Shown here piece after piece: positions 954 to 34,106 of a stretch of 64,000 nt of DNA. A program made the position numbers and the translations under genes. Within the stretch, counting starts at the first letter, position 1, and every line of letters begins with the position of its first letter. This stretch comes from an uncultured Gammaproteobacteria bacterium (GTDB lineage Bacteria; Patescibacteriota; Microgenomatia; Levybacterales; UBA12049). The stretch spans positions 432-64,431 of the forward strand of contig CAZFYA010000003.1 in assembly GCA_964523705.1 (NCBI GenBank), given 5' to 3'. Under the pieces are notes generated by a model. That model did not search any database. It saw only the letters and a program-made list of their open reading frames with translations, and was not told the origin of the DNA.

Positions 954-1043
954 TGGCGGAGAGAGTGGGATTCGAACCCACGGTGACATTGCTGCCACGT
1001 TGGTTTTCAAAACCAATGCACTAGTCCACTATGCGATCTCTCC
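954..1043 (-). tRNA. tRNA-Ser (anticodon TGA), class II with long variable arm; CCA is encoded
   Basis: Reverse complement reads GGAGAGA-TC-GCA...TGC-A-TTGGT-TTTGAAA-ACCAA-(19 nt variable arm)-GTGGG-TTCGAAT-CCCAC-TCTCTCC-G-CCA. It has a 3-bp D stem with a long D loop, and a GGTTCGAATCC T arm. Confidence 0.85.
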
Positions 1044-2828: not shown

Positions 2829-3194
2829 TGGTGGAGATGTCGAGTAGTGAACTCGAGTCCAAGAAATTTATTAAAAAACATTTACAAGCTTATTCGATTT
2901 TTAAGCTTCGCTTTATTCTTATCCAATCGAAAGGAAAAAATAAAGTTAAGATTAAATAAGTTCGATAAGGATATAATCAACTTCCTTATTATTTTCCAAA
3001 CTGTGTTTATGCCTATAAAATCCCGTTTGGAAAAGATTAAATAGACAGGCAATCTACTTAAGCGTATGCGTAAGCAAATTGACCACTAGAATATTGATTT
3101 CTAGCATTTATATTTTGACTAGGATTTAGCGACATTTAGTCATTGTCGGCTTGCAGTTTTTTAAAGTGCTTTCCTGTCGATGCAATGCATCCCC
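2829..3194 (-). ncRNA. ssrA: tmRNA (ssrA)
   Basis: The minus strand begins GGGGAUGCAUUGCAUCGACAGG and ends ...GGACUCGAGUUCACUACUCGACAUCUCCACCA. The acceptor GGGGAUG/CAUCUCC carries the G3:U70 Ala identity pair. Candidate tag reading frame is GCT AGA AAT CAA TAT TCT AGT GGT CAA TTT GCT TAC GCA TAC GCT TAA, giving (A)RNQYSSGQFAYAYA. It lies next to smpB. The plus-strand ORFs 2847-3044 and 3151-3435 in the track are spurious. Confidence 0.8.
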
Positions 3195-23247: not shown

Positions 23248-23298
23248 TTGACATAACAGATCTAGGGCTTTATGATTTTTTTGGCACTAGATATAGTG
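23248..23298 (+). promoter_or_regulatory. Sigma-70-type promoter (TTGACA-17-TATGAT) with an NrdR-box-like palindrome over the transcription start
   Basis: TTGACA at 23248-23253 and TATGAT at 23271-23276. CACTAGATATAGTG at 23285-23298 is one mismatch from a perfect palindrome, resembles NrdR operators, and lies 9 nt before the nrdR ATG. Confidence 0.5.
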
Positions 23299-23306
23299 TT
23301 TTTAAG

Positions 23307-23756
23307 ATGAAATGTCCATATTGCGGTAATCGAGAAACAGAGGTAGTTGAAACCAGAGTAAGCGAGGATTTTGACACTATACGAAGAAGAAGAGCATGTT
23401 TAAAGTGTGAAAAAAGATTTACAACTTACGAAAGAACGGAAAACATTACCTTAATTGTTATTAAAAAAGACGGTAGAAGAGAGCAGTTTAACAGAGAAAA
23501 ACTTAAAAATGGAATGATTCGATCTTGCGAAAAGACAAAAGTATCAATTGCAGATATAGAAAAAATAGCAGCAGAGATAGAACAAGAATTAAGAGGCGCA
23601 GATTCAGTAGAAGTAGAAAGTAAGAAAATTGGACAAATGGTAGCAACAAGGCTTAAGAAATTAGATAAAGTAGCATATATTAGATTTTCAAGCGTATTTA
23701 AAAGATTTGTAGACGTTGAAGACTTTGAAAAAGAAGTCAAAAGATTAATTAAATAA
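23307..23756 (+). CDS. nrdR: Transcriptional repressor NrdR
   Basis: MKCPYCGNRETEVVETRV...CLKCEKRFTTYE zinc ribbon plus ATP-cone. Confidence 0.9.
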   Translation: MKCPYCGNRETEVVETRVSEDFDTIRRRRACLKCEKRFTTYERTENITLIVIKKDGRREQFNREKLKNGMIRSCEKTKVSIADIEKIAAEIEQELRGADSVEVESKKIGQMVATRLKKLDKVAYIRFSSVFKRFVDVEDFEKEVKRLIK

Positions 23757-23759
23757 ATT

Positions 23760-26237
23760 ATGAAACTAGACGGTATCAGAGAAAAAGTTTTTCTAGACAG
23801 ATATTCATTAAAAAATAAAAAAGGAGCTCCTGTGGAGAAAACCCCCAATGAGATGTGGAAAAGAGTAGCAAAAGGAGTTGTAAAGGCTGAAAAAGCAAAT
23901 GTTAGAGCAAAGTGGCAAAAAAAATTCTATGATGCAATGCAGGATTTTAAATTTGTTCCGGGAGGAAGAATTTTAGCCGGAGCAGGAACAGGATATCAGG
24001 TAACTTTTTATAACTGTTTTGTTTTACCAAGCCCCAAAGACTCAAGAGATGGAATTTTAGAGAACTTAAAACATATGACTGAAATAATGGCAAGAGGAGG
24101 AGGAGCAGGAATCAATCTTTCATCACTTAGGCCAAGAGGGGCAAGGGTTAAGAAGGTAAATGGATTTTCTTCAGGTCCGATTAATTGGGCAGAGCTTTAT
24201 TCAATAACCACAAAAGACATTATTCAACAAGGTGGCTCAAGAAGAGGAGCATTAATGCTTATGCTTTGGGACTGGCATCCTAATATTGAAGAATTTATTA
24301 CCGTAAAGCAGGATTTAACTAAAATTACCGGAGCAAACCTTTCTGTTTGCGTATCCGATAAATTTATGGAGGCAGTTAGAAAAAATAGCAACTGGGACTT
24401 AGTTTTTCCAGATATTAATGATAAAGACTATGATGAAAAATGGGATGGAAGCCTTGAAAACTGGAAAGCCTTAAAGAAAAAAGTAAAAGTATATAAAACT
24501 GTTAAAGCAAGACATCTTTGGGATTTAATTTGTGAAGCCGCATGGAAATCTGCTGAGCCAGGAGTTGTTTTTATGGAAAGATATAACAAATGGTATAACA
24601 ACTGGTATTGGAATAGAGTAAATTGTACAAATCCATGTGGAGAAGAAGGCTTACCAGCTTGGGGAGTTTGTAATTTAAGCTCTTTGAATTTATCGGCCTT
24701 TGTAAAAGGGTACAGTGTAGACAAACCAGGGGAAATGGATTATAAATCCCTTGCTGAACATGCAAAGATTGGAGTTAGGCTTCAAGATAATGTAATAGAC
24801 CTTGATTCCTATGCTTTTCCTCAAATAAGAGAAATGCAGTTAAACGGAGAAAGAAGAATTGGCCTTGGAACAATGGGTCTTGGAGATGCATTAATAAAAA
24901 TGCATCTTCGCTACGGATCTAGCGATTCACTTAAGGTAATTGAGAAGATATTTAAAACAATTAGAGACGCAGCATATGAAGCATCAGCAGAGCTTGCCAA
25001 AGAAAAGGGTGCATTTCCAAAGTTTAATTCCTCAAAATATTTAAAAGGCTACTTTATTAAAAAACTACCAAAAGAAATAAGAGCAAAAATTAAAAAATAT
25101 GGAATTAGAAACTCGCTTCTTCTTCAAGAAGCACCAACCGGCTCAACCAGTCTTTTAGCAGGGGTTTCATCGGGAATTGAACCAATTTATGAATTTGAAT
25201 TTACAAGAAAAGATAGACTTGGAGAACACAAAATTTATCATCATTTATATGAAGAATGGAAAAACACTCATCCTTCGACAAGCTCAGGACAGGTCCAAGA
25301 AAAACCAGACTATTTTGTTTCAGCAAATGACTTAACACCTGAAGATCATGTAAAAGTTCAGGGTAAAATTCAAGAATATGTTGATGCTTCTATTTCAAAA
25401 ACAGTTAATGCACCAAAAGCCCATACAATTGATGATGTTAAAAGACTTTACATGCTGGCGTATAAAGAAGGTTGCAAAGGAATTGCCTATATGAGAGAAG
25501 GCTCAAGGGAAGGGGTTTTAGTTAGACAAGAAGATAAAAAAGAAGAAGTAAAAAAAGAAGCTACACAACCAATTGATACAAAACGCCCAATTACCCCAAG
25601 GCCGTATATGGTAGAAGGAGTAACATATCAAACCGAAACTCCGGTTGGAAAAACCTTTATTACCATCAATCATGATGATAATAAAGAACCATTTGAAATT
25701 TTTATTACAGTTGGGAAAAGTGGTTCAGACGTTGCTGCGATGGCAGATGCATTAGGTAGAATGTTGTCTTTGTTTTTAAGATCACGTGGACATTTATCTT
25801 CAAGGGAGAGAATAAAACAAATAATAGCACAGCTTATTGGAATTGGTGGTGCAAAAAGCGTTGGTTTTGGTGATAAAAGAGTAAGATCCTTGCCAGATGC
25901 GGTTGCTAAGGTTTTGGCTAAGCACTTTTCTTTTAGAGTAAATGGAATTGTTGAAGATAATCCAAAAGCTGCAAATGGACAAGTTAAAGCAAATGGAGTT
26001 ACTAATGGAATAACCAATGGGCATGTAAAGCCTTCACCTGTTTTAGAACCTCAAAAAGAAGAAGAAAAAGAGGTAGTTATGCTTAAGCAGTTAACAATTG
26101 AAAATCAAGAAGGACACTTAGCAACAGAAGGATTAGCAACAGGGCTTTTTGATATTTGTCCTGATTGTGGAAGTGGAAGCTTAGCTTATGAAGAAGGCTG
26201 TAGGAAATGCTACAGCTGTGGATATTCAGAATGTTAG
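23760..26237 (+). CDS. nrdJ: Class II (adenosylcobalamin-dependent) ribonucleotide reductase
   Basis: 825 aa with RNR catalytic-core motifs (NPCGE, ...). C-terminal Cys cluster CPDCGSG...CRKCYSCGYSEC. Confidence 0.85.
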   Translation: MKLDGIREKVFLDRYSLKNKKGAPVEKTPNEMWKRVAKGVVKAEKANVRAKWQKKFYDAMQDFKFVPGGRILAGAGTGYQVTFYNCFVLPSPKDSRDGILENLKHMTEIMARGGGAGINLSSLRPRGARVKKVNGFSSGPINWAELYSITTKDIIQQGGSRRGALMLMLWDWHPNIEEFITVKQDLTKITGANLSVCVSDKFMEAVRKNSNWDLVFPDINDKDYDEKWDGSLENWKALKKKVKVYKTVKARHLWDLICEAAWKSAEPGVVFMERYNKWYNNWYWNRVNCTNPCGEEGLPAWGVCNLSSLNLSAFVKGYSVDKPGEMDYKSLAEHAKIGVRLQDNVIDLDSYAFPQIREMQLNGERRIGLGTMGLGDALIKMHLRYGSSDSLKVIEKIFKTIRDAAYEASAELAKEKGAFPKFNSSKYLKGYFIKKLPKEIRAKIKKYGIRNSLLLQEAPTGSTSLLAGVSSGIEPIYEFEFTRKDRLGEHKIYHHLYEEWKNTHPSTSSGQVQEKPDYFVSANDLTPEDHVKVQGKIQEYVDASISKTVNAPKAHTIDDVKRLYMLAYKEGCKGIAYMREGSREGVLVRQEDKKEEVKKEATQPIDTKRPITPRPYMVEGVTYQTETPVGKTFITINHDDNKEPFEIFITVGKSGSDVAAMADALGRMLSLFLRSRGHLSSRERIKQIIAQLIGIGGAKSVGFGDKRVRSLPDAVAKVLAKHFSFRVNGIVEDNPKAANGQVKANGVTNGITNGHVKPSPVLEPQKEEEKEVVMLKQLTIENQEGHLATEGLATGLFDICPDCGSGSLAYEEGCRKCYSCGYSEC

Positions 26238-26307
26238 GTGTATAGGTAATTGCCGTGTAATTCGGCGACAGTGCCGCTACTGTTAAAGTCAGAAAACTAT
26301 ACACACC
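26237..26307 (+). promoter_or_regulatory. Structured RNA element with cobalamin-riboswitch-like core motifs (candidate minimal B12 aptamer)
   Basis: Outer helix GGTGTATAG...CTATACACACC encloses GTGTAATTCGGCGACAGTGCCGCTACTGT (compare GGUGAAAAUCCGG...CCCGCCACUGU) and AAGTCAGAAAAC (compare the B12 box AAGUCAGGAGAC). It is followed by a second hairpin CCTCTATATATTAAGTAGAGG. Confidence 0.35.
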
Positions 26308-26387
26308 TCTATATATTAAGTAGAGGATTTCCCGAGCAGGAATTTTTTTATAAATAAACCTTCTTGGGAAACAAGGAGGATTTTTTT

Positions 26388-26906
26388 ATGAAAAAAATAT
26401 ATACAAAAAGGGGAGATAAGGGCTTTACCTACCTTTTTAGCGGTAAAAAAGTAGCAAAAGACCACGCAAAAATACAAGTCTTAGGAAGTATTGATGAGCT
26501 AAATTCAATAATAGGGATAGCAATCTCTTTTTCAAAAGATAAAAAGATAAAGCAAGAATTAATTAATGTTCAAAAAGATTTATTTTTAATAGGAGGATGC
26601 TTAGCAGGATCAACACAGGGAGAAATAGGAACATTAAAAGAAAGAACAGAAAAAATTGAACAATTAATAGATAAATTATCAATTAAACTTCCTATATTAA
26701 CTCACTTTATACTTCCGGGAGGAGTAAAGGAAGCTTCATTGTTACACCTTGCAAGAACAATTTGCAGAAGAGCAGAGCGAAGTATTATAGCTTTTTCCAG
26801 AAGAGAAAAGATAAAAAAAGAAATACCCATTTATTTAAATAGGCTTTCAGACCTCCTTTTTATAATGGCGAGATATACAAACTTTAAATCGAAAAAAAGG
26901 AGGTAG
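26388..26906 (+). CDS. PduO-type ATP:cob(I)alamin adenosyltransferase
   Basis: MKKIYTKRGDKGFTYLFSGKKVAKDHAKIQVLGSIDELNS matches the PduO/MMAB N-terminus. AAGGAGGA RBS at 26372-26379. The track start at 26364 uses a TTG; the ATG at 26388 is preferred. Confidence 0.7.
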   Translation: MKKIYTKRGDKGFTYLFSGKKVAKDHAKIQVLGSIDELNSIIGIAISFSKDKKIKQELINVQKDLFLIGGCLAGSTQGEIGTLKERTEKIEQLIDKLSIKLPILTHFILPGGVKEASLLHLARTICRRAERSIIAFSRREKIKKEIPIYLNRLSDLLFIMARYTNFKSKKRR

Positions 26907-26920
26907 TCTGGAGAAAGTAA

Positions 26921-27970
26921 ATGAAAGAAGTTGTTGGTTCAAGCGCATTTAAAATAGAATATCAGCCACCAGTATTAGACAAAGAAATTAGAGAAGATGT
27001 TGTTTCCTATCTTTGGGAATATCGATTTTGTGGCCAAAAATATAATTACACTTTAGATTTTTCAAATGGGCAGATTCGCGATTGTCATAGAAGTGAGCCA
27101 ATGGGAATTAAGGCAAAAAGAGCAATAGAGGATAGAGAAAAAAAAGGGCTATTAACCAGAAGAGAAGAGGCGGAAGCTATAGGAATTAAAAGATTAGAAA
27201 ACAAATTGATGTTTAGTCGGGATAATTCATCGATTGTTTGGGCAAGTCCACCAGGATTAATAGAGGAGGGGTATGGAGACTATGGTTTTGTATACTTTGG
27301 GAAAGTAAAAAAAGAAGGAAAAGATAAAACGCTTGAAATGACTGCAATAAGAGTAGAAAATCCTTCAATAGATGACTTCAATAGTTTTTTTAAAGAGATA
27401 CTAGATGAAAACATTGATTTTAAAAACGCAGAAGATTTTATATCTTCTCCTGTAATAGTTAGTGAAGAAATCAGCGAAGAGTCAATAGAAAAAATTCTAA
27501 ATAAAGTATTTTTATATCAAGAAAGAAAAGGTGAAGGAGAATACTTTTCTAAAGTAAAAAGAAAACTAGAACCGTTAATAGATCAATTTATTCGCTTAGA
27601 AGGAGAAGGGAAATTAAAAGCATTTTATGCACTTGAAAATTACGCAATCTTACTTAAAGAAGAACATGAAACAGGATTTGAAAACGTACTTTATTTAAGA
27701 CAAAACAATGATCCAACCCTTGAACAGTTAATATCAATTCATGGACACAAACCACCAGTTGTTAGAGGAAGCTGTGGTAGTACAGGAAGTATAGAGAGCA
27801 ATAACCTTTTTAATACAACTTCGAGTTTAGACTTTTTGGAAAACGATAAATACGGATCAAGAAGTTTTACTTGTCCTAATTGTGGAATGGTTAATGTTAG
27901 ACCCGAAAACGAACTTATTTCTTGTTGTCAATATTGTGGCAGCAATGAGGTTTCTTGTTCCCACGCTTAG
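26921..27970 (+). CDS. Hypothetical protein with a C-terminal zinc ribbon
   Basis: 349 aa. C-terminal CPNCG...CCQYCG. No family recognised. Confidence 0.4.
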   Translation: MKEVVGSSAFKIEYQPPVLDKEIREDVVSYLWEYRFCGQKYNYTLDFSNGQIRDCHRSEPMGIKAKRAIEDREKKGLLTRREEAEAIGIKRLENKLMFSRDNSSIVWASPPGLIEEGYGDYGFVYFGKVKKEGKDKTLEMTAIRVENPSIDDFNSFFKEILDENIDFKNAEDFISSPVIVSEEISEESIEKILNKVFLYQERKGEGEYFSKVKRKLEPLIDQFIRLEGEGKLKAFYALENYAILLKEEHETGFENVLYLRQNNDPTLEQLISIHGHKPPVVRGSCGSTGSIESNNLFNTTSSLDFLENDKYGSRSFTCPNCGMVNVRPENELISCCQYCGSNEVSCSHA

Positions 27971-30802: not shown

Positions 30803-30876
30803 GCTCCTGTAGCTCAGTGGCAGAGCGCTACTCTTATAAAGTAGATGTCCTTGGTTCGAATCCAAGCAGGAGCACA
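30803..30876 (+). tRNA. tRNA-Ile with anticodon TAT (UAU); no CCA encoded
   Basis: GCTCCTG-TA-GCTC-AGTGGC-AGAGC-G-CTACT-CTTATAA-AGTAG-ATGTC-CTTGG-TTCGAAT-CCAAG-CAGGAGC-A. Anticodon loop CTTATAA puts TAT at positions 34-36. Confidence 0.8.
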
Positions 30877-32987: not shown

Positions 32988-32999
32988 ATTAAAATAGAT

Positions 33000-33290
33000 A
33001 AAAATCTTTGTTGCGGGGCTAGGAGTTGCGCCTAGCCTATGAGATTATGCAATCTGTTTCTCTAATTACTTAGAGTGTCGGACTATATCATCATCCATTT
33101 TCTGGATGCTTGGCGTGTAGTCTCTACGGGATCTTTTTTTAGACTTCCCTCGGTATTGTCCTATCGAAATAGGATTTTACCGATATAGCCAAGTTCTCTT
33201 CTCATTATTGCTAATAAAAAGGGCCCATTTGAGCCTCATGTGCACTGTACACTACCCCGCACGTGAAAGCATTATAACAATTTAACTTTA
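33000..33290 (-). ncRNA. Group I intron-like ribozyme core (P3-P9), on the strand opposite to the adjacent LAGLIDADG ORF
   Basis: Minus-strand assignments, given as plus coordinates. P3 is CUUGGC (33188-33193) paired with GCCAAG (33109-33114). P4 is UCGGUA/UACCGA. P5 is UCCUAU/AUAGGA capped by a UUCG loop. P6 is GGGA...UCCC. P7 is AGACUA (complement of 33118-33123) paired with UAGUC (complement of 33081-33087). P8 is CAUCCA/UGGAUG. P9 is CUCUAA-GUAA-UUAGAG with a GNRA loop. P9.2 is GGCUAGG/CCUAGCC. The S-element-like string GAUAUAGUCC is present. Confidence 0.6.
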
Positions 33291-34052
33291 ATGGGTCAAC
33301 GTTTGACAAAAATAGAACAGGTAGCTATAGTATTAGTACTAATATATTTTGGCAGTTTGATTATGGCAAAATTTGAGCTTAGATTACGGGCACGAGAAAT
33401 GAGAAAAAAAGGAATTAGCGTCAAGGAAATTGCTAACACGTTGGGAATTTCGAAAAGCACAGCTAGTATTTGGGTTAGAGATGTAGTTCTGTCAATTAGT
33501 CAACTAGAGAAATTAAGACAAAAAAGCCTTGATGGAGCAGAGCGTGGGCGTTTAAAAAGTGCTTTAATGCAAAAAAATAGATGGATTAAAAAATTAGAAG
33601 CACATAAGCAAGCAGGAATAAAAACGATTGGTGATTTGGACAAGAGAGAATTTTTTATCGCTGGGCTTGCATTGTATTGGGCAGAGGGAAGTAAAAAAAG
33701 CAGATCTGTAGAATTTTGCAACTCAGATCCCAAGATGATCGTATTTTTAATACGTTGGCTTACGGAATGTTTTTCGATAGGGAAAGAAGAGCTTAGGTGT
33801 AACGTTGGAATAAATGAAATTCACAGGAAAAGAGAGAAAATTATTAATGAATACTGGTCAAATATTACAGGTATTCCATTAAGTCAATTTAGGAAAATAA
33901 TGTATAAAAAAGTTATAAATAAAAAAATCTATGAAAATTACGATAATTATTTTGGAACTCTTGCTGTCAGAGTAATGCAACCATCGAGATTTTATGCTAA
34001 AATCTTAGGGCTAATAGAAGGATTAGCATTTGCCAGCGTAGCTCAGGGGTAG
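33291..34052 (+). CDS. HTH plus single-motif LAGLIDADG homing endonuclease-like protein
   Basis: N-terminal HTH (ISVKEIANTLGISKSTASIWVRDV). LAGLIDADG motif FFIAGLALYWAEGSKK. A possible degenerate second motif GLIEGLAF lies at the extreme C-terminus. The stop codon lies inside the D loop of the downstream tRNA-Met. The real start may be the Met at 33363. Confidence 0.6.
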   Translation: MGQRLTKIEQVAIVLVLIYFGSLIMAKFELRLRAREMRKKGISVKEIANTLGISKSTASIWVRDVVLSISQLEKLRQKSLDGAERGRLKSALMQKNRWIKKLEAHKQAGIKTIGDLDKREFFIAGLALYWAEGSKKSRSVEFCNSDPKMIVFLIRWLTECFSIGKEELRCNVGINEIHRKREKIINEYWSNITGIPLSQFRKIMYKKVINKKIYENYDNYFGTLAVRVMQPSRFYAKILGLIEGLAFASVAQG

Positions 34053-34106
34053 AGCGGACGTTTCATAAGCGTCATGTCGCAGGTTCGAATCCTGCCGTTG
34101 GTACTA
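34032..34106 (+). tRNA. tRNA-Met (anticodon CAT), elongator-type; no CCA encoded
   Basis: GCCAGCG-TA-GCTC-AGGGGTA-GAGC-G-GACGT-TTCATAA-GCGTC-ATGTC-GCAGG-TTCGAAT-CCTGC-CGTTGGT-A. The acceptor stem has two G-U pairs and there is no GGG/CCC run in the anticodon stem, so it is not an initiator. It could alternatively be tRNA-Ile(LAU). Confidence 0.75.

Follow-up and report, generated by a model that had tools for sequence, protein, structure and literature searches.

A probable class-II cobalamin riboswitch between the genes for a B12-dependent ribonucleotide reductase and an adenosyltransferase in Patescibacteria-type DNA

Cobalamin riboswitches of class II (Cbl-II) fall into two subclasses that differ in the periphery of the aptamer. 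Cbl-IIa members combine a bulged T-loop in J1/3, which docks on J6/3, with a plain loop L6, and prefer hydroxocobalamin (HyCbl) or methylcobalamin (MeCbl), some of them being selective for adenosylcobalamin (AdoCbl); Cbl-IIb members have no J1/3, carry a short hairpin in P6 and bind AdoCbl, and J1/3, which is missing in some members, is regarded as the key determinant of selectivity (PMC7367189, PMC6158498). The kissing loops of the cobalamin clan always hold an unpaired base and, in env8, linker length tunes the docking of the kissing loop (PMC5028336). A repressing logic of P13, antiterminator and terminator has been dissected genetically for the metE riboswitch of P. megaterium (Kennedy et al. 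2023, PMC10653944), and adenosyltransferase genes are known to stand under cobalamin riboswitches, as in the btuFCDR operon of B. subtilis (PMC9600662); both the class-II family and this platform logic are known. Here we describe an element of this family in a 64,000-nucleotide (nt) stretch of DNA (the window; positions are counted within it and refer to the plus strand unless stated), where it lies between nrdJ, encoding a class II, B12-dependent ribonucleotide reductase (RNR), and the gene for a PduO-type ATP:cob(I)alamin adenosyltransferase (ATR). Judged from its sequence, the element is quite probably a functional class-II cobalamin riboswitch that, at high cobalamin, keeps the genes behind nrdJ repressed. 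Specific to this locus are the Patescibacteria lineage, the intercistronic site after nrdJ, a periphery that mixes IIa and IIb features, and a well-covarying relay platform with short-circuited variants.

The entire window was searched with cmscan, at gathering thresholds, for the 4227 families of Rfam 15. Among the six matches is RF01689 (AdoCbl-II or AdoCbl-variant, Cbl-II; clan CL00101), which scores 50.8 bits where the gathering score is 36.5, with an E value of 2.1e-9 (2e-11 in a local scan of 601 nt). The alignment spans all 81 model positions, and the four-way junction of P3, P4, P5 and P6 is present with the conserved nucleotides of L4, L6, J3/4 and J6/3; P6 and L6, together with J6/3 (GAAAAC), make up a string resembling a ‘B12 box’. 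A preliminary description of this DNA had proposed a cobalamin riboswitch controlling the ATR gene in a coherent B12 context. The match above the gathering score supports that proposal, the two motif strings then quoted align to the conserved RF01689 core (L4/P4, P5/L5 and P6/L6/J6/3), and the 71-nt sequence and its closing helix, GUGUAUAG/CUAUACAC, are as described, with eight contiguous pairs, to which G26237 can add one with C26306 or C26307 by skipping an unpaired A. The same description was mistaken in calling the element far shorter than known cobalamin riboswitches, as some 80 nt is normal for class II; with this length and an E value of 2e-9, the three explanations that it offered, a degenerate fragment, a coincidence in AT-rich DNA or an unusually minimal variant, all fall away. 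The spacer also drew weak Rfam matches, with E values of 0.19-9.5 and scores far short of the respective gathering thresholds (snoU109, Yfr10, SpF39 and others), which we regard as noise.

The sole part of the sequence that misfits the RF01689 model is the outer P1, in which three of the six pairs are non-canonical in the cmscan alignment. The 5′ end of the match (26228-26236) falls within the final codons of nrdJ and is unpaired, and the bases aligned to J1/3 (UUAGGUG) pair instead with CAC(A)CC, extending P3 into a continuous 8-bp helix. RNAfold alone gave a fold merging P5 with the 5′ arm of P6, which we rejected in favour of the family fold backed by the covariance model and by covariation. 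In the competition within the clan, RF00174 (Cbl-I) lost to RF01689, and the 71-nt core contains neither a P2 module (the loop-stem-loop of Cbl-I) nor the large P6 extension (P7-P11). Within class II, the bulged J1/3 T-loop of Cbl-IIa is lacking and the continuous P1/P3 helix agrees with the paired or short mismatched J1/3 of Cbl-IIb, while the short P6 hairpin extension of the latter is absent from the window and from the related loci L004 and L008. By its sequence, the aptamer belongs to class II as an ordinary member whose periphery mixes the two subclasses (no J1/3, simple L6).

With env8HyCbl/AdoCbl-variant (Cbl-IIa; RF01689; PDB 4FRN) the window aptamer shares the compact P3-P6 four-way junction, without P2 or large P6 extension, and the conserved L4, L6 and core nucleotides, whereas it has no J1/3 internal loop, P1 and P3 forming one continuous helix. 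The hosts also differ, being Patescibacteria-type, from biogas or sediment-type metagenomes, in our case and marine surface bacteria in that of env8 (PMC7367189). The absence of an identifiable J1/3 is shared with Cbl-IIb, the AdoCbl type of E. faecalis eut (RF01482; PMC6158498, PMC7367189). A short P6 hairpin, again as in Cbl-IIb, occurs in the window orthologs L009 and L010 and in L014, whose best Rfam match is RF01482; the window itself differs in its plain 7-nt L6 without a P6 hairpin and in its best match, RF01689. The E. faecalis eut element, moreover, is described as working within a small RNA and not as a leader in cis.

Tracing the identical ATR protein and its nearest relatives (88%, 70% and 63% identity) led to metagenomic contigs and metagenome-assembled genomes. 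The longer contigs keep the order methyltransferase-DUF5667-nrdR-nrdJ-spacer-ATR-unknown open reading frame (ORF)-small ORF-DUF8128/TraG-like, and the shorter ones at least nrdJ-spacer-ATR. The element was found in the nrdJ-ATR spacer of all the syntenic relatives recovered (ATR 63-88% identical), so the proposed riboswitch also stood up to the comparison of orthologous intergenic regions, in which it is conserved with covariation. Scores against RF01689 were 45.5 bits in L004/5/6, 55 bits in L008 and 37.6 bits in L010/11, the last with a 31-nt insertion in L6; the L009 spacer aligns clearly to the element yet scores below the threshold. More distant instances came from a metagenome scan with an ATR profile, a motif screen and cmscan: aptamers of the cobalamin clan that share their L5 and L13 with the window adjoin ATR in L012-L016, L019, L020, L053, L058, L092, L095 and L096. 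They stand either upstream of ATR or just downstream of it, in which case they precede an unknown ORF of about 400 aa or a DUF4430/DUF6580 gene pair. The source names of the homologs are those of Patescibacteria/CPR (candidate phyla radiation), namely Microgenomates, Levybacteria and Parcubacteria. A search of genome contigs with the ATR protein listed a single locus, L001 (Peribacteria, 40% identity), which has no riboswitch.

Covariation was computed on 10 insertion-free aptamers, because a MAFFT alignment of all 19 misaligned the 3′ halves owing to the L6 insertions. With the family fold, 85.5% of cells were paired, compared with 65.5% in shuffles, and 11 of the 18 pairs changed on both sides; the covariation score was 0.51 against 0.15, none of 500 shuffles reached 0.51, and every slid register gave 0.16 or less. 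Most of the signal is carried by P4, with compensatory changes in four of its five pairs and 95.9% of cells paired. One pair of P5 is A-U in five sequences and U-A in the other five, and in P1/P3 the inner two pairs covary. Compensatory changes thus support P3, P4 and P5. P6 is invariant and hence neutral on pairing, and the outer P1 pairs are in register for window-type sequences only, which brings the pairing of helix 1 to 70%. A P6-extension hairpin of the Cbl-IIb kind (about 30-70 nt) lies in L6 of L009 (3868-3905) and L010 (2538-2571), and likewise in that of L014, L013b (2956 copy), L019b (2060 copy) and L020. Since L009 and L010 carry the hairpin at the same locus at which the window, L004 and L008 have a plain 7-nt loop, this periphery has been gained or lost among close relatives.

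The expression platform was compared over 20 distinct instances. Downstream of the aptamer the preliminary description had noted a hairpin and a T-run; both are present, but there are three hairpins rather than one, H2, P13 followed by U7, and H4 followed by U7. The 3-5-bp stem of P13 covaries between instances (UUCC/GGAA, CUUC/GAAG, CUUU/AGAG, CCC/GGG and UCCUU/AAGGA), L13 is CGAGCA in 18 of the 20, and L5 is UGCCG in 19. Between 5′-UGCCG-3′ of L5 and 5′-CG[A]GCA-3′ of L13, five pairs are possible with one A left unpaired, and the complementarity of L5 to the loop of P13 with at least one unpaired nucleotide that marks the clan is therefore found here at the level of sequence. It recalls the env8 kissing loop to a small P13 in the platform, with an unpaired purine in L13, what is seen in the window being the complementarity; in env8 two purines are unpaired instead of one base (PMC5028336). 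The sole L5 variant, AGCCG in L013a, is accompanied by a matching L13, CGAGCU, a double change from U:A to A:U, and the L13 of L053, CGGGCCA, is still complementary to L5. As support for a kissing loop, this covariation is suggestive but thin.

The linker between P1 and P13 (J1/13) differs from that of env8 in containing a hairpin, H2. This is kept in all five window orthologs despite unrelated sequences, so that the changes in it are compensatory, while more distant instances have no H2 and a linker of 8-12 unpaired nt. It is plausible that H2 keeps the effective linker short and its ends close, aiding the docking of the kissing loop. The U7 run directly 3′ of P13 may be a pause site, a weak and possibly ligand-dependent second terminator, or a relic of a direct arrangement of P13, Shine–Dalgarno sequence (SD) and AUG; a U6-U8 run follows P13 also in L009, L010, L012, L014, L015 (1509 copy), L020 and L053, even before a second hairpin and U-run.

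The SD, AAGGAGG (26373-26379), forms the 3′ arm of H4, 31 nt after P13, and so does not lie within L13/P13 as in the env8 type of Cbl-IIa. A U6-U7 run follows H4 in all 17 instances that have this hairpin, and in L019a and L092 H4 and its U-run stand without an adjacent start codon. The 5′ half of P13 with part of L13, UUUCCCGAG, can form nine pairs (−11.7 kcal/mol) with CUUGGGAAA in the 5′ arm and loop of H4, and none of 1000 shuffles of the downstream segment was as good. This anti-sequestor complementarity amounts to 7-9 bp in 16 of the 17 H4-bearing instances, in each of which at most 6% of shuffles did as well. Its strands differ between loci in compensatory sets, UUUCCCGAG/CUUGGGAAA in the window, CUUCCGGG/CCCGGAAG in L053, CUUUCGAG/CUCGAAAG in L016 and CUUCCGAG/CUCGGAAG in L013b and L096, and the mean energy is −11.1 kcal/mol for own-locus pairing compared with −8.8 across loci. 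When the growing transcript was folded, the anti-sequestor was the minimum-free-energy structure for transcripts ending at 26372-26387, and for the transcript 26306-26387 the anti-sequestor state lies at −23.5 and the P13+H4 state at −21.9 kcal/mol, a gap so narrow that a kissing loop stabilised by ligand could shift the balance. In its sequence logic, the arrangement is that of the repressing P13/antiterminator/terminator platform (PMC10653944).

Three instances, L004, L008 and L058, have no H4 but hold the ribosome-binding site directly in P13, with AGGA or AGGG in its 3′ arm and the AUG 6-8 nt further on, as in env8. Comparison of window positions 26343-26387 with 3993-4000 of L004 and 2000-2007 of L008 places the difference in a segment of about 45 nt, containing H4, that is missing in these two. 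In the window the segment is flanked by the near-repeat GGA(A/U)UUUUUUUAU(A/G)AAA, which suggests a simple deletion or duplication between a relay platform and a direct, env8-like one.

We propose the following scheme. The four-way-junction aptamer would bind cobalamin, and the ligand would stabilise the kissing loop between L5 and L13. With P13 locked in this way, H4 would form and bury the SD, and with its U7 run it could in addition end transcription immediately ahead of the ATG (26388), so that ATR and the following ORFs would be off and H4 would become the end of the nrdJ transcript. In the absence of ligand the weak 4-bp P13 would open and UUUCCCGAG would pair with CUUGGGAAA, an anti-sequestor and antiterminator that would free the SD and turn the genes on. 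On this scheme nrdR-nrdJ would always be made, and ATR with the downstream ORFs only when cobalamin is scarce. The predicted direction of control comes from the anti-sequestor, which excludes both P13 and H4; as these two do not overlap, stabilising P13 should release H4, giving an OFF switch. Termination is favoured as the outcome by the strict conservation of the U6-U7 run and by the two instances in which H4 and its U-run lack an adjacent start codon.

An OFF logic of this kind would be shared with env8 (PMC5028336), from which the window differs in having the SD in a separate downstream hairpin, reached through the anti-sequestor relay, and not in L13. It would be shared too with metE of P. 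megaterium, in which a P13 stabilised by a kissing loop, a terminator hairpin with U-run and repression on ligand binding occur as proposed here, whereas the metE aptamer belongs to class I, its antiterminator is formed from the 3′ side of P13 rather than from the 5′ side and the first loop bases, and its terminator does not, as in the window, also carry the SD directly before the AUG; the activating cobT design is the opposite (PMC10653944). The btuFCDR (yvrC) riboswitch of B. subtilis resembles ours in standing over an operon with an adenosyltransferase gene, btuR, and differs in having P2 and other periphery and in heading a transport operon from its 5′ end, where ours lies after nrdJ between two cistrons (PMC9600662, PMC7367189).

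Other explanations have to be weighed against this scheme. One is that the element has no regulatory function, being either a relic in decay or a chance resemblance in AT-rich DNA, and that its hairpins are the nrdJ terminator. This might be suggested by the unpaired outer P1 of the Rfam model and by the AT-rich, low-complexity spacer; it is effectively refuted by the E value of 2e-9, by the retention of the element where ATR is only 63-88% identical and the flanking linkers diverge completely, and by compensatory changes in P3, P4, P5, P13, H2 and the anti-sequestor. An ON switch, in which cobalamin would activate ATR so that imported B12 is adenosylated, in the manner of A. halodurans cobT, makes physiological sense as substrate induction of an adenosyltransferase, and an activating corrinoid riboswitch does exist (PMC10653944). 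We nevertheless consider it very improbable here: P13 overlaps the terminator in the activating design (PMC10653944) whereas P13 (26329-26342) and H4 (26359-26379) are separate in the window, a single alternative pairing excludes both of them so that a stabilised P13 favours H4, and the SD lies inside P13 in L004, L008 and L058, which would likewise be OFF switches. Purely translational control, with H4 only masking the SD and the U tract a mere spacer between SD and AUG, is a more serious contender, although we think it rather unlikely. Translation is the level of control in env8 and in E. coli btuB (PMC5028336, PMC10653944), the SD lies in H4 with the AUG adjoining, and relatives without H4 hold the SD in P13; on the other hand, wherever H4 is present its GC-containing stem is followed by a strictly conserved U6-U7 run, L019a and L092 have the hairpin and U-run with no start codon beside them, and the folding energies of the full-length mRNA speak for a decision taken kinetically, during transcription.

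The form of the ligand is a separate question, and an aptamer without J1/3 (IIb-like) and with a plain L6 (IIa-like) does not allow it to be decided from sequence. On physiological grounds, product feedback on the enzyme that supplies NrdJ, we give AdoCbl an even chance or slightly better. The aptamer might instead sense non-adenosylated cobalamins (hydroxo-, aquo- or methylcobalamin), as env8 does, and so report total imported cobalamin rather than AdoCbl; its best Rfam match, RF01689, is the family whose characterised member env8 prefers HyCbl and MeCbl (PMC7367189), and the simple L6 without a P6 hairpin is periphery of the IIa type. We hold this to be possible but the less likely case, for the J1/3 T-loop of the IIa pocket is absent and P1 and P3 stack continuously, members without J1/3 (the E. 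faecalis eut type, Cbl-IIb) bind AdoCbl, selectivity in class II is a spectrum (PMC6158498, PMC7367189 for the former; PMC6158498 for the latter), a P6 hairpin of the IIb type occurs in the orthologs L009 and L010, and repression of ATR by its own substrate would presumably starve NrdJ of AdoCbl.

Several observations weigh against the repressing scheme itself. The aptamer has no J1/3, the known selectivity determinant of class IIa, which bears on the form of its ligand; the kissing-loop covariation comes down to a single compensatory change, in L013a, and a variant that is tolerated, in L053, with L5 and L13 otherwise uniform; the anti-sequestor complementarity of L012 is poor, with 281 of 1000 shuffles as good; and it is the 5′ half of P13 that enters the anti-sequestor, not the 3′ side as in the metE precedent (PMC10653944). 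In the full-length window mRNA without ligand, the SD-sequestered state is favoured by about 6 kcal/mol (−30.8 versus −24.7). Here the first U-run and the AU-rich spacer (26343-26355) pair with AUGAAAAAAAUA in the A-rich start of the ATR frame, within 26343-26399, lengthening H4 into a long helix that buries the AUG, a feature specific to the window and to orthologs of the MKKIYTK type. The thermodynamic model can therefore hold only with a kinetic or co-transcriptional decision, which is the probable case. A separate promoter within the 3′ end of nrdJ is a conceivable alternative to an operon promoter, and ligand binding, the direction of regulation, its transcriptional or translational level and the ligand form are all points that we infer.

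The genes flanking the element had been correctly called in the preliminary description, Pfam confirming both the class-II RNR and the adenosyltransferase (Table 1). The nrdJ stop codon, UAG (26235-26237), abuts the aptamer. A consensus scan found a near-consensus, sigma-70-type promoter-like site before nrdR and no comparable site between nrdR and ATR, and the former is a candidate promoter for a transcription unit nrdR-nrdJ-(riboswitch)-ATR. With an aptamer that starts at the nrdJ stop, the element would then likely be a conditional terminator within an operon. Two minus-strand ORFs (26083-26304 and 26316-26477) were rejected, being short and overlapping nrdJ or ATR.

The 349-aa ORF that follows ATR is probably co-regulated with it. 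It has 119 homologs, all under Patescibacteria/CPR names, with an invariant GSCG motif and a C-terminal zinc ribbon of four cysteines, and in one of them, P0127 (538 aa), the family is fused to ATR. Searches found no sequence relative in the PDB beyond the zinc ribbon, and its AlphaFold (AF2) model, though confident (pLDDT 86), resembled no PDB entry in Foldseek at E ≤ 0.001. A 391-aa ORF at the same position in L004 is a remote homolog (hhalign 98.7%), and relatives of that ORF stand directly behind cobalamin riboswitches in L016, L019 and L053. The family is a candidate for a new cobalamin-processing or handling partner of PduO-type adenosyltransferases. On related contigs, cobalamin riboswitches also precede DUF4430 and/or DUF6580 genes (L096 2547-3712; L013 2900-3062 and 2029-2933; L015 266-930). 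DUF4430 we take to be a transcobalamin-like domain, and DUF6580 shows weak similarity to the S-components of energy-coupling factor (ECF) transporters, making the two candidates for B12 capture and uptake genes of CPR bacteria; a tblastn search found no homolog of either in the window.

Table 1. Positions of the riboswitch, its platform and the neighbouring genes in the window, with family members in relatives (positions on their own contigs)
Feature	Position	Strand	Basis or remark
Promoter-like site TTGACA-17-TATGAT, 11/12 consensus matches	23248-23276	+	Upstream of nrdR; consensus scan only
nrdR (Zn-ribbon + ATP-cone repressor)	23307-23756	+	Pfam PF22811, PF03477
nrdJ-type class II (B12-dependent) RNR	23760-26237	+	Pfam Ribonuc_red_lgN, Ribonuc_red_lgC, TSCPD
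Class-II aptamer	26228-26307 (Rfam extent); 26237-26307 (folded core, 71 nt)	+	cmscan
P1/P3 5′ strand GUGUAUAG	26238-26245	+	Pairs with 26297-26304; RNAfold
P4 hairpin UGCCG/CGGCG, L4 UGUAAUU (T-loop-like loop of the family)	26251-26267	+	cmscan alignment
P5 (AG/CU), L5 UGCCG at 26272-26276, proposed kissing partner of L13	26270-26278	+	cmscan alignment
P6 (CUG/CAG), simple 7-nt L6 UUAAAGU	26280-26292	+	cmscan alignment
P1/P3 3′ strand CUAUACAC	26297-26304	+	RNAfold, covariation
H2, 7-bp hairpin in P1-P13 linker (J1/13)	26306-26326	+	Ortholog comparison
Anti-sequestor 5′ strand UUUCCCGAG (P13 5′ half + part of L13)	26328-26336	+	Pairs with 26363-26371
P13 hairpin, stem UUCC/GGAA, L13 CGAGCA at 26333-26338	26329-26342	+	Comparison of 20 instances
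U7 run directly 3′ of P13	26343-26349	+	Sequence
H4, 8-bp SD-sequestering, terminator-like hairpin CCUUCUUG/CAAGGAGG	26359-26379	+	Terminator scan, RNAfold
Anti-sequestor 3′ strand CUUGGGAAA (H4 5′ arm + loop)	26363-26371	+	Pairs with 26328-26336
U7 run between H4 and ATG 26388; terminator tail and SD-AUG spacer	26381-26387	+	Sequence, terminator scan
PduO-type ATR, proposed regulated gene	26388-26906	+	Pfam PF01923, E 1.2e-53
349-aa ORF, 15 nt after ATR	26921-27970	+	No Pfam match
349-aa family members in relatives	L004 4536-5711; L009 4555-5625; L016 864-2072; L019 2192-3508; L053 2200-3531

Elsewhere in the window, a group I intron (RF00028, 81.6 bits; Rfam match 33059-33241, region about 32990-33290, minus strand) is flanked on that strand by exon sequences resembling a tRNA, GCGGGGUAGUG... 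and ...CUAGCCCCGCA, a split tRNA that ARAGORN did not call. The ORF beside it (33291-34052, plus strand) has, judged by eye, a LAGLIDADG-like motif, FIAGLALYWAEGSK. A transfer-messenger RNA (tag ARNQYSSGQFAYAYA; 2829-3194, minus strand) and four tRNA genes, Ser-UGA (954-1043, minus strand), Ser-GCU (2117-2203), Ile-UAU (30803-30875) and Met-CAU (34032-34104), the last three on the plus strand, are ordinary.

For annotation, the element is settled as a bona fide Cbl-II riboswitch, and no existing knowledge is overturned; our literature search found no paper joining cobalamin riboswitches to Patescibacteria. The locus and its relatives outline a small regulon for B12 salvage in Patescibacteria-type genomes, consisting of ATR, the uncharacterised protein fused or linked to it and, in relatives, the DUF4430/DUF6580 candidates, and bacteria of the host type are presumably B12 auxotrophs that need AdoCbl for the only RNR visible. 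For riboswitch biology, the set offers natural class-II platforms with a relay from P13 through an anti-sequestor to SD and terminator, together with variants that short-circuit it, and the IIa/IIb-mixed aptamers should be useful in testing current rules for selectivity towards the upper ligand. A bolder reading, which we regard as a long shot, is that the element is a minimal AdoCbl-selective sensor, with neither J1/3 T-loop nor P6 hairpin, working where nrdJ ends as a conditional terminator inside the operon of an ultra-small Patescibacteria genome, that the lineage is a natural experiment in swapping periphery and platform, and that the ATR-fused 349-aa family, an orphan in fold, is a new cobalamin-processing factor. 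If this were true, the gain or loss of the P6 hairpin (L009, L010) and of the SD-hairpin module (L004, L008) would show that such parts can be swapped without loss of function.

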